Below, in pieces: positions 43,449-43,800 of a DNA stretch of 47,756 bases; the stretch's first letter is position 1; each line of letters opens with the position of its first letter. The DNA comes from Promethearchaeota archaeon. GTDB lineage: Archaea > Asgardarchaeota > Lokiarchaeia > Sigyniarchaeales > SOKP01. The stretch lies in the NCBI GenBank assembly GCA_048941015.1, contig JBHLNZ010000019.1, positions 1 to 47,756 on the forward strand, read 5' to 3'. The notes under the pieces were generated by a model, which was given only the letters and a program-made list of their open reading frames with translations, was not told where the DNA came from and searched no databases. A program made the translations under genes and the position numbers.

Positions 43449-43539
43449 TTTGTTTCACTAAGTTATAATTTTTTATTTTTTTCTCTCGATTATGAAAAAA
43501 GAAATATTAGATTTTTGATAAAAATGCGAGATCGCCATC

Positions 43540-43583
43540 CCGTCTCCACCAATAACTAGCATTTTCTTATTGATATCATTGAT
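43540..43583 (-). promoter_or_regulatory. Putative eukaryote/Loki-type SECIS element
   Basis: Minus strand: ATGA (43579-76), TATCAATAA, loop GAAAATGCTAG, TTATTGGTG, GA (43546-45); 9-bp stem with 2 G:U pairs and unpaired AAAA; lower helix weak. Confidence 0.75.
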
Positions 43584-43800
43584 TTTTTTTTATTGATTTA
43601 TTTTCTCTTTTTTGAATTTGTAATCAGGGAACGCTACCATATGCACAAAGTACTCAATTTCATCCATGATGATTTTCTTTACCAGTAATGATTTCTTTAC
43701 AACTTTGACATTCAAGTCTCATAAGTCATTGATTTTCCTTTATATCTACTGTATTTGAATGCCCACAAAATGGACATCTTACTAAGCTTTTATATATCAT
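43576..43800 (-). CDS. GDCCVxC-family small Cys-rich selenoprotein with four putative Sec residues
   Basis: Manual translation MIYKSLVRCPFCGHSNTVDIKENQ-U-LMRLECQSCKEIITGKENHHG-U-N-U-VLCAYGSVP-U-LQIQKRENKSIKKNQ*; TGA at codons 25, 47, 49, 59; downstream SECIS-like hairpin; adjacent merA. Confidence 0.85.

Follow-up and report, generated by a model that had tools for sequence, protein, structure and literature searches.

Within the stretch of DNA analysed here (47,756 nucleotides of a Promethearchaeota archaeon, contig JBHLNZ010000019.1 of GenBank assembly GCA_048941015.1; hereafter the window), a short reading frame on the minus strand contains several in-frame UGA codons and ends in a hairpin whose core holds the last of them. 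The locus raises the question of how these UGAs are read, and of what the hairpin contributes to reading or ending the gene. An earlier note on this DNA had proposed a eukaryote-type SECIS that decodes the four upstream UGAs, its own AUGA core providing the stop codon. The features concerned are collected in Table 1.

Table 1. Positions of the small gene, its SECIS hairpin and the downstream features in the window
Feature	Position	Strand	Evidence or remark
GDCCVxC-family small Zn-ribbon selenoprotein CDS, codons 1-74	43579..43800	minus	NF041374 score, orthologs, pN/pS, AlphaFold model
Sec codon 25 (UGA)	43726..43728	minus	TGA in 27/27 Sec forms; Cys in 20/20 Cys forms
Sec codon 47 (UGA)	43660..43662	minus	TGA in 27/27 Sec forms; Asp, then Cys, in the Cys forms
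Sec codon 49 (UGA)	43654..43656	minus	TGA in 27/27 Sec forms; Cys in 20/20 Cys forms
Sec codon 59 (UGA), last conserved Sec	43624..43626	minus	TGA in 27/27; Cys in 20/20
SECIS hairpin, whole	43579..43545	minus	AUGA, 9-bp stem, 11-nt loop, GA
SECIS core AUGA; its UGA (43578..43576) is in-frame codon 75, the presumed stop	43579..43576	minus	ATGA invariant in alignment A2
5' arm of stem, UAUCAAUAA; it ends in the back-up stop, UAA (43569..43567)	43575..43567	minus	
Apical loop, GAAAAUGCUAG; 11 nt, A-rich start, AG end	43566..43556	minus	matches lokiSECIS description
3' arm of stem, UUAUUGGUG	43555..43547	minus	covariation of stem pairs
GA of SECIS core, partner of the GA in AUGA	43546..43545	minus	GA or AA in every ortholog
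Second hairpin, CGGGAU-GGCG-AUCUCG, 2 nt after core GA	43542..43527	minus	in nearly all orthologs; also behind VhuD SECISes
T5 run after second hairpin, possible transcription stop	43520..43524	minus	only terminator-like site of the region
merA, downstream context	42045..43448	minus	TIGR02053 MerA, 531.9 bits against a cut-off of 454

The gene and its in-frame UGA codons

The frame that opens with the ATG at 43800 has TGA at codons 25, 47, 49, 59 and 75 and TAA at codon 78, in agreement with the earlier reading of a fifth in-frame UGA in the hairpin core and a TAA three codons on. The predicted protein (M-I-Y-K-S-L-V-R-CPFC...CQSC...HG-U-N-U-VLCAYGSVP-U-LQIQ...) has the motifs CPFC and CQSC, followed by G-U-N-U-V-L-C and P-U. 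With TGA read as Cys, it scored 51.4 bits against NCBIfam NF041374, 'GDCCVxC domain-containing (seleno)protein' (cut-off 40); in a six-frame search of the genome, with stops left unscored, it reached 37.7 bits. It shares with this family the two CxxC pairs and the G-x-C-C-V-x-C region. It differs from the family as listed in that the Lokiarchaeia form has four Sec (U...GUxUVxC...PU) and a 3' lokiSECIS, whereas other Asgard families hold Cys-only forms. An AlphaFold model of the small protein was confident (pLDDT 91.7), and a Foldseek comparison of this model with the PDB gave nothing at E 0.001 or better, only weak zinc-ribbon-like rows.

A protein homolog search, with TGA taken as Cys, returned just three near-identical entries of 70 aa (P0001-P0003), all with Trp at the four Sec positions. 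That search yielded no Cys form of similar length; Cys forms came instead from the six-frame family search, in other Asgard families. The Trp-bearing entries look like the outcome of gene calling under a TGA=Trp code on short contigs. Public databases would then carry a four-selenocysteine protein mistranslated with Trp, and a tiny gene overlooked by standard ORF calling probably encodes a real four-selenocysteine protein of Lokiarchaeia.

The genome provides the context for such a protein. Read with the standard code, the window is densely coding, and its genes include archaeal Nre and leucine-rich-repeat genes. The genome has a tRNA-Sec (61 bits, above the Rfam cut-off) adjoining SepSecS (371 bits), and a SelD gene with a single in-frame TGA. 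A PSTK-like gene is present at full length, with a score under the PSTK family cut-off. Together with the standard code, this set of genes indicates that the host makes selenoproteins and that TGA is not a general sense codon.

Homologs of the gene were found in 29 further genomes by a six-frame search of 161 genomes of the class, with identity down to 27%, and the great majority retained four or five in-frame TGAs. The set analysed comprised 27 Sec-form orthologs with 4-5 in-frame TGAs and 20 Cys-only forms from other Asgard families. When these were aligned, the four TGA columns were invariant in all 27 Sec forms, which belong to the Lokiarchaeia class. Three of the columns are Cys in every Cys form; the fourth is Asp followed by Cys (GDCC as compared with GUxU). 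Past the first TGA, pN/pS was 0.17-0.45 in the informative comparisons. Reading TGA as Trp or Gly was also considered, and was ruled out by the standard code and the Sec/Cys alignment columns.

Two members of the family are unusual. In a distant ortholog the core (L033:1402-1489, minus strand) reads AAGA in place of AUGA, and in the gene upstream of it a fifth in-frame TGA replaces the last Cys of the second CxxC (C-G-G-U). Another copy (L032; genome G072, contig C36) has lost its N-terminus, is interrupted by three TAAs and has a degenerate SECIS stem; as a decayed copy, it was left out of the alignments.

The hairpin and its conservation

The published lokiSECIS consists of AUGA, a 9-bp stem with an 11-nt apical loop, and then GA; the first five bases of the loop are mostly A, and its final G is ultraconserved, usually after A (Mariotti et al., 2016, PMC4989117). 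The window hairpin has AUGA directly 5' of the stem, as have 18 of 18 aligned orthologs, and all nine stem positions are paired (seven Watson-Crick and two G-U pairs). The 11-nt loop, GAAAAUGCUAG, has A-rich first five bases and a terminal G after A, and the stem is followed by GA, which in the type-I form is rarely AA and in the orthologs is either. The setting is likewise that of type-I elements, namely the end of a gene whose in-frame UGAs align to Cys, in a genome with Sec machinery. The element thus matches the published description at every point, as the proposal of a eukaryote-like, Loki-type layout had anticipated; the AUGA/GA core and 9-bp helix were found on the minus strand where the earlier note had placed them, all of its coordinates being correct.

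A scan of 43300..43900 with Rfam at E up to 10 gave chance-level matches only and no SECIS family, so that the element falls outside the curated model RF00031 (SECIS_1) at this threshold. This miss is expected, because earlier SECIS covariance models were reported to overlook the elements of Loki genes (Mariotti et al., 2016, PMC4989117). By contrast, a covariance model of our own (R1), built on the ortholog alignment, scored 40-86 bits at the Sec-form loci with 11-nt loops and at L018. At 30 Cys-form loci R1 found nothing at E 0.1 or better, with two weak matches at E 0.25 and 0.49.

Of the 27 Sec-form loci, 25 carry a hairpin of this form, beginning 41-68 nt beyond the last Sec codon. The exceptions are L025, with a candidate at +78, and L027, with an uncertain one at +144; the loops of both are longer and possibly of type II, and neither locus entered the gapless alignment of 18 elements, A2. 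In this alignment ATGA is invariant, as are loop columns A24-A26 and G32. RNAalifold recovered the SECIS stem from A2 unaided. Changes on both sides were present at seven of the nine stem pairs, and 92% of cells were paired; when the partner was slid by 1-3 columns as a control, pairing fell to 33-49%. The covariation score of the named two-helix structure, made up of the SECIS stem and the second hairpin, was reached in 0 of 500 shuffles. The pair adjoining the core is often U-U among orthologs. Conservation in TGA-containing orthologs had been put forward as a test on which the proposal should stand or fall, and covariation as a further check; both turned out in its favour. Judged by sequence and comparison, we conclude that the window hairpin is a genuine lokiSECIS of type I, of the eukaryote-like Asgard kind already published.

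These data also bear on a reading in which there is no SECIS, the hairpin being a chance structure or a terminator and the TGAs the mark of a pseudogene or of another code, with TGA as Trp. The public protein sets that carry W at the four positions, and the terminator-like look of the second hairpin with its T5 run, speak for such a reading. Yet the code of the genome is the standard one, the four TGA columns do not vary among 27 genomes and are under purifying selection, they align with Cys rather than Trp in the homologs, and AUGA and GA are kept around a covarying stem that is absent from Cys-form loci. We regard it as scarcely credible. A lokiSECIS serving the four UGAs, as the earlier note had it, fits all of the comparative evidence from the orthologs, the Sec/Cys alignment and R1.

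The window element shares AUGA, stem, loop, GA and gene-end position with published lokiSECISes (Mariotti et al., 2016, PMC4989117; Huang et al., 2024, PMC11227280), and in both cases one element serves several UGAs. It differs from them in the gene it serves (GDCCVxC/GOS_B), in a last Sec codon just 47 nt from the core (41 nt in one ortholog), in the conserved second hairpin directly behind it and in its unusually weak stem. With eukaryotic SECIS (RF00031) it has in common the AUGA...GA core of kink-turn type, unpaired adenosines about 9-10 bp above the core and a 3' location; in contrast to these, its upper stem is shorter, a convincing lower helix is missing and it has no Rfam match at E up to 10. 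SBP2 is not known in archaea according to the literature. The euryarchaeal SECIS of Methanococcales and Methanopyrus likewise occupies the 3' UTR and acts on a distant UGA, but the window element, read directly, has neither the GAA_A bulge nor the G-C-rich upper stem of that class.

The protein family is listed as 'Hypothetical protein GOS_B', with one Sec, in a 2026 review (PMC13188914). It is absent from the seven Asgard selenoprotein families of Huang et al. (2024, PMC11227280) and from Sun et al. (2021). What is new here is modest: a GDCCVxC family that is unlisted for Asgard archaea by Mariotti et al. (2016), Huang et al. (2024) and Sun et al. (2021), and a conserved second hairpin after its SECIS.

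The UGA in the core and the end of translation

Although the AUGA core does hold the gene's presumed stop in the window, as had been claimed, this arrangement is restricted. The AUGA is in frame, with no earlier stop, only in the window (L006) and in a sister genome (L007; 88% protein identity). At +36 nt after the last Sec codon, among close relatives, L008, L009 and L010 have TAA and L011 has TGA, whereas the window and L007 have AAA; L008, for instance, reads TCA ATA TAA where the window reads TCA ATA AAA. Because the relatives stop at this position, the overlap is a derived single-base change that added K-K-N-Q to the protein. L008 and L009 also have the core UGA in frame, there as no more than a second stop following the TAA. 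Stops of this kind are also on record: AUGA itself is the stop of VhuU.1 (Mariotti et al., 2016, PMC4989117), which the window shares with that gene, and overlaps of UGA stops with AUGA have been called frequent in Lokiarchaeia (Huang et al., 2024, PMC11227280). We conclude that the overlap of stop and SECIS is a young, lineage-specific by-product of a kind already described, and not a new mechanism.

The distances of the UGAs from the core fall into two classes. All conserved Sec UGAs are at least 41 nt upstream of AUGA, while the non-conserved terminal UGAs are 0-21 nt away; they include those at 11-21 nt in L011, L017 and L020. In two VhuD genes and in a further gene on contig C32 of the window's own genome, the terminal UGA directly abuts AUGA. 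Many Loki selenoprotein genes end in UGA, and the proximity of these codons has been held to preclude SECIS function there, which amounts to a minimal-distance requirement (Mariotti et al., 2016, PMC4989117). On sequence grounds, the distances found here (terminal UGAs at 0-21 nt, Sec codons at 41 nt or more) fit that model. With Sec codons at 41-149 nt from the core and presumptive UGA stops at 0-21 nt, the roughly 27 orthologs form a compact natural data set for the distance rule of eukaryote-like SECISes.

Taken as a whole, the following account is in our judgement very probably right: a functional type-I lokiSECIS recodes four UGAs, a UAA stop was lost as a derived change, and translation terminates at the core UGA or else at the UAA behind it. 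The lokiSECIS, an archaeal Sec elongation factor and Sec-tRNA would together recode codons 25, 47, 49 and 59 as selenocysteine, the SECIS acting from 47-149 nt away. A T-to-A change in the window and the sister genome converted the ancestral UAA stop to AAA, so that translation would continue for another four codons and reach the UGA that lies in frame within the AUGA core. With this UGA in the A site, the 5' arm would already be unwound and the SECIS signal thus unavailable, so that a release factor would terminate. If the core UGA failed to stop the ribosome, the UAA three codons on would do so. For this gene we infer both the insertion of selenocysteine and the termination at codon 75 from sequence comparison. 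Termination through unfolding of the SECIS, as the earlier note envisaged, is plausible on the argument of Mariotti et al. (2016); given their minimal-distance view and the reported AUGA stops, it is a reasonable mechanism and not a new one, and the site at which it would act is not conserved.

Codon 75 might instead be read as a fifth selenocysteine, in which case the protein would end ...NQ-U-Y-Q at the UAA. The codon is in frame, that UAA is only three codons away, and in the view of Mariotti et al. (2016, PMC4989117) one lokiSECIS may serve as many as six UGAs. Against this, codon 75 is not conserved, three relatives having TAA and one TGA four codons earlier, and neither are the tail residues. 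Moreover, the 5' arm begins one base after the core UGA and would therefore be inside the ribosome while codon 75 is read, and by the published reasoning nearby UGAs act as stops (Mariotti et al., 2016, PMC4989117). A fifth selenocysteine is accordingly improbable, and we retain codon 75 as the presumed stop.

Alternative folds, the second hairpin and related elements

A switch had also been suggested, in which AAAAUGC of the apical loop pairs with a downstream GCAUUUU. The latter is present at 43527..43521 as described, and the window has a complementary run of 8 between the two when G-U pairs are counted. In addition, in the minimum-free-energy fold of the naked window RNA the U/A tract beyond the second hairpin pairs with the 3' arm and GA (-15.7 vs -11.3 kcal/mol), which puts the 3' arm into an alternative helix. 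The SECIS stem by itself (43547..43575) has -4.2 kcal/mol and a pair probability of about 0.003, among the weakest in the family. One could thus envisage a regulated element in which the GCAUUUUU/U-rich tract downstream pairs with the loop or the 3' arm, so that the SECIS is masked and Sec insertion or termination is adjusted. However, the loop-to-downstream complementarity is specific to L006 and L007. The longest runs of most other orthologs measure 5-7 nt, which is at the shuffled expectation of about 5-6; L024 has a run of 9, compared with a shuffled mean of 5.2. The alternative helix has no covariation support, and the SECIS stem folds with a probability above 0.45 in 17 of 25 orthologs, as it does in all VhuD elements. 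Since neither alternative pairing is backed by conservation, we consider such a switch very unlikely. In close relatives, L008 among them, the stem includes G-C pairs and folds well; the predicted weakness of the stem remains a caveat for the efficiency of the window allele.

We also considered, and rejected, a lower helix joining the A run that precedes AUGA to the T run that follows the second hairpin; it is unformed in the constrained fold of the window and inconsistent among orthologs.

The second hairpin and the T5 run form the sole terminator-like site in the region, and none was present in shuffles. A T run in this position is frequent among orthologs, though not universal. The sequence of the hairpin changes in distant orthologs (GAGA/UCUC, AGGA/UCCU, CAGUU/AACUG), while within A2 its variation is mostly one-sided. 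The VhuD SECISes of the same genome are also followed by a second hairpin, and there an outer helix often encloses both hairpins in a three-way junction. No such hairpin is part of the SECIS models of Mariotti et al. (2016, PMC4989117) and Huang et al. (2024, PMC11227280). It may be a 3'-end or terminator hairpin, a role in which it would presumably act together with the T5 run, or it may be part of the signal. A broader proposal, which we advance tentatively and think rather doubtful, is that the Asgard SECIS is a two-hairpin (or three-armed) module, in which a G-C-containing hairpin 2-4 nt after the core GA is required and is not a terminator. The GDCCVxC family would also bracket its working distance, UGAs at least 41 nt away being read as Sec and those at most 21 nt away as stops.

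Downstream, merA starts 118 nt past the TAA of the Sec gene; the encoded MerA equivalog has no N-terminal metal-binding domain. Among 25 ortholog loci, seven have a merA-like gene behind the small Sec gene (the window and L007, L009, L012, L013, L030 and L031), distant genera included, so that the arrangement is recurrent and not universal.

The genome contains further elements of this type. We defined a strict form as ATGA, 9 bp with at most one mismatch, an 11-nt loop with an A-rich start and AG end, and GA. It occurs six times in the 3.59-Mb genome, whereas ten Markov-1 genomes of equal length have 0.3 copies on average. Four of the five copies outside the window are directly behind HdrA-VhuD or VhuD selenoprotein genes with the Sec motif ...K-U-GYG... 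When R1 was run on the genome, it independently detected two VhuD SECISes, and one more element that follows another gene with UGAs, that on contig C32.

The C32 gene (G000, about 3021..3571, minus strand; equivalent to L037:1566-2051) would encode a product of about 160 aa (P0004) with two adjacent in-frame TGAs, D-V-G-C-U-U, for which no Pfam or NCBIfam match was found. It ends in TGA abutting the ATGA of its own Loki-type SECIS, which has a 12-nt loop and scores 51 bits with R1. In L017, L021 and L024, copies of this gene family, each with its own SECIS, stand in tandem directly upstream of the GDCCVxC gene.

The sixth hairpin of the strict form is on contig C20 of the same genome (3785..3819, minus strand) and is again followed by a second hairpin. 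The Zn-ribbon ORF in front of it has 37 codons, lacks internal TGAs and ends with TGA TAA; the hairpin may be either a relic or still functional. Next comes a small Zn-ribbon ORF that is a paralog of this one.
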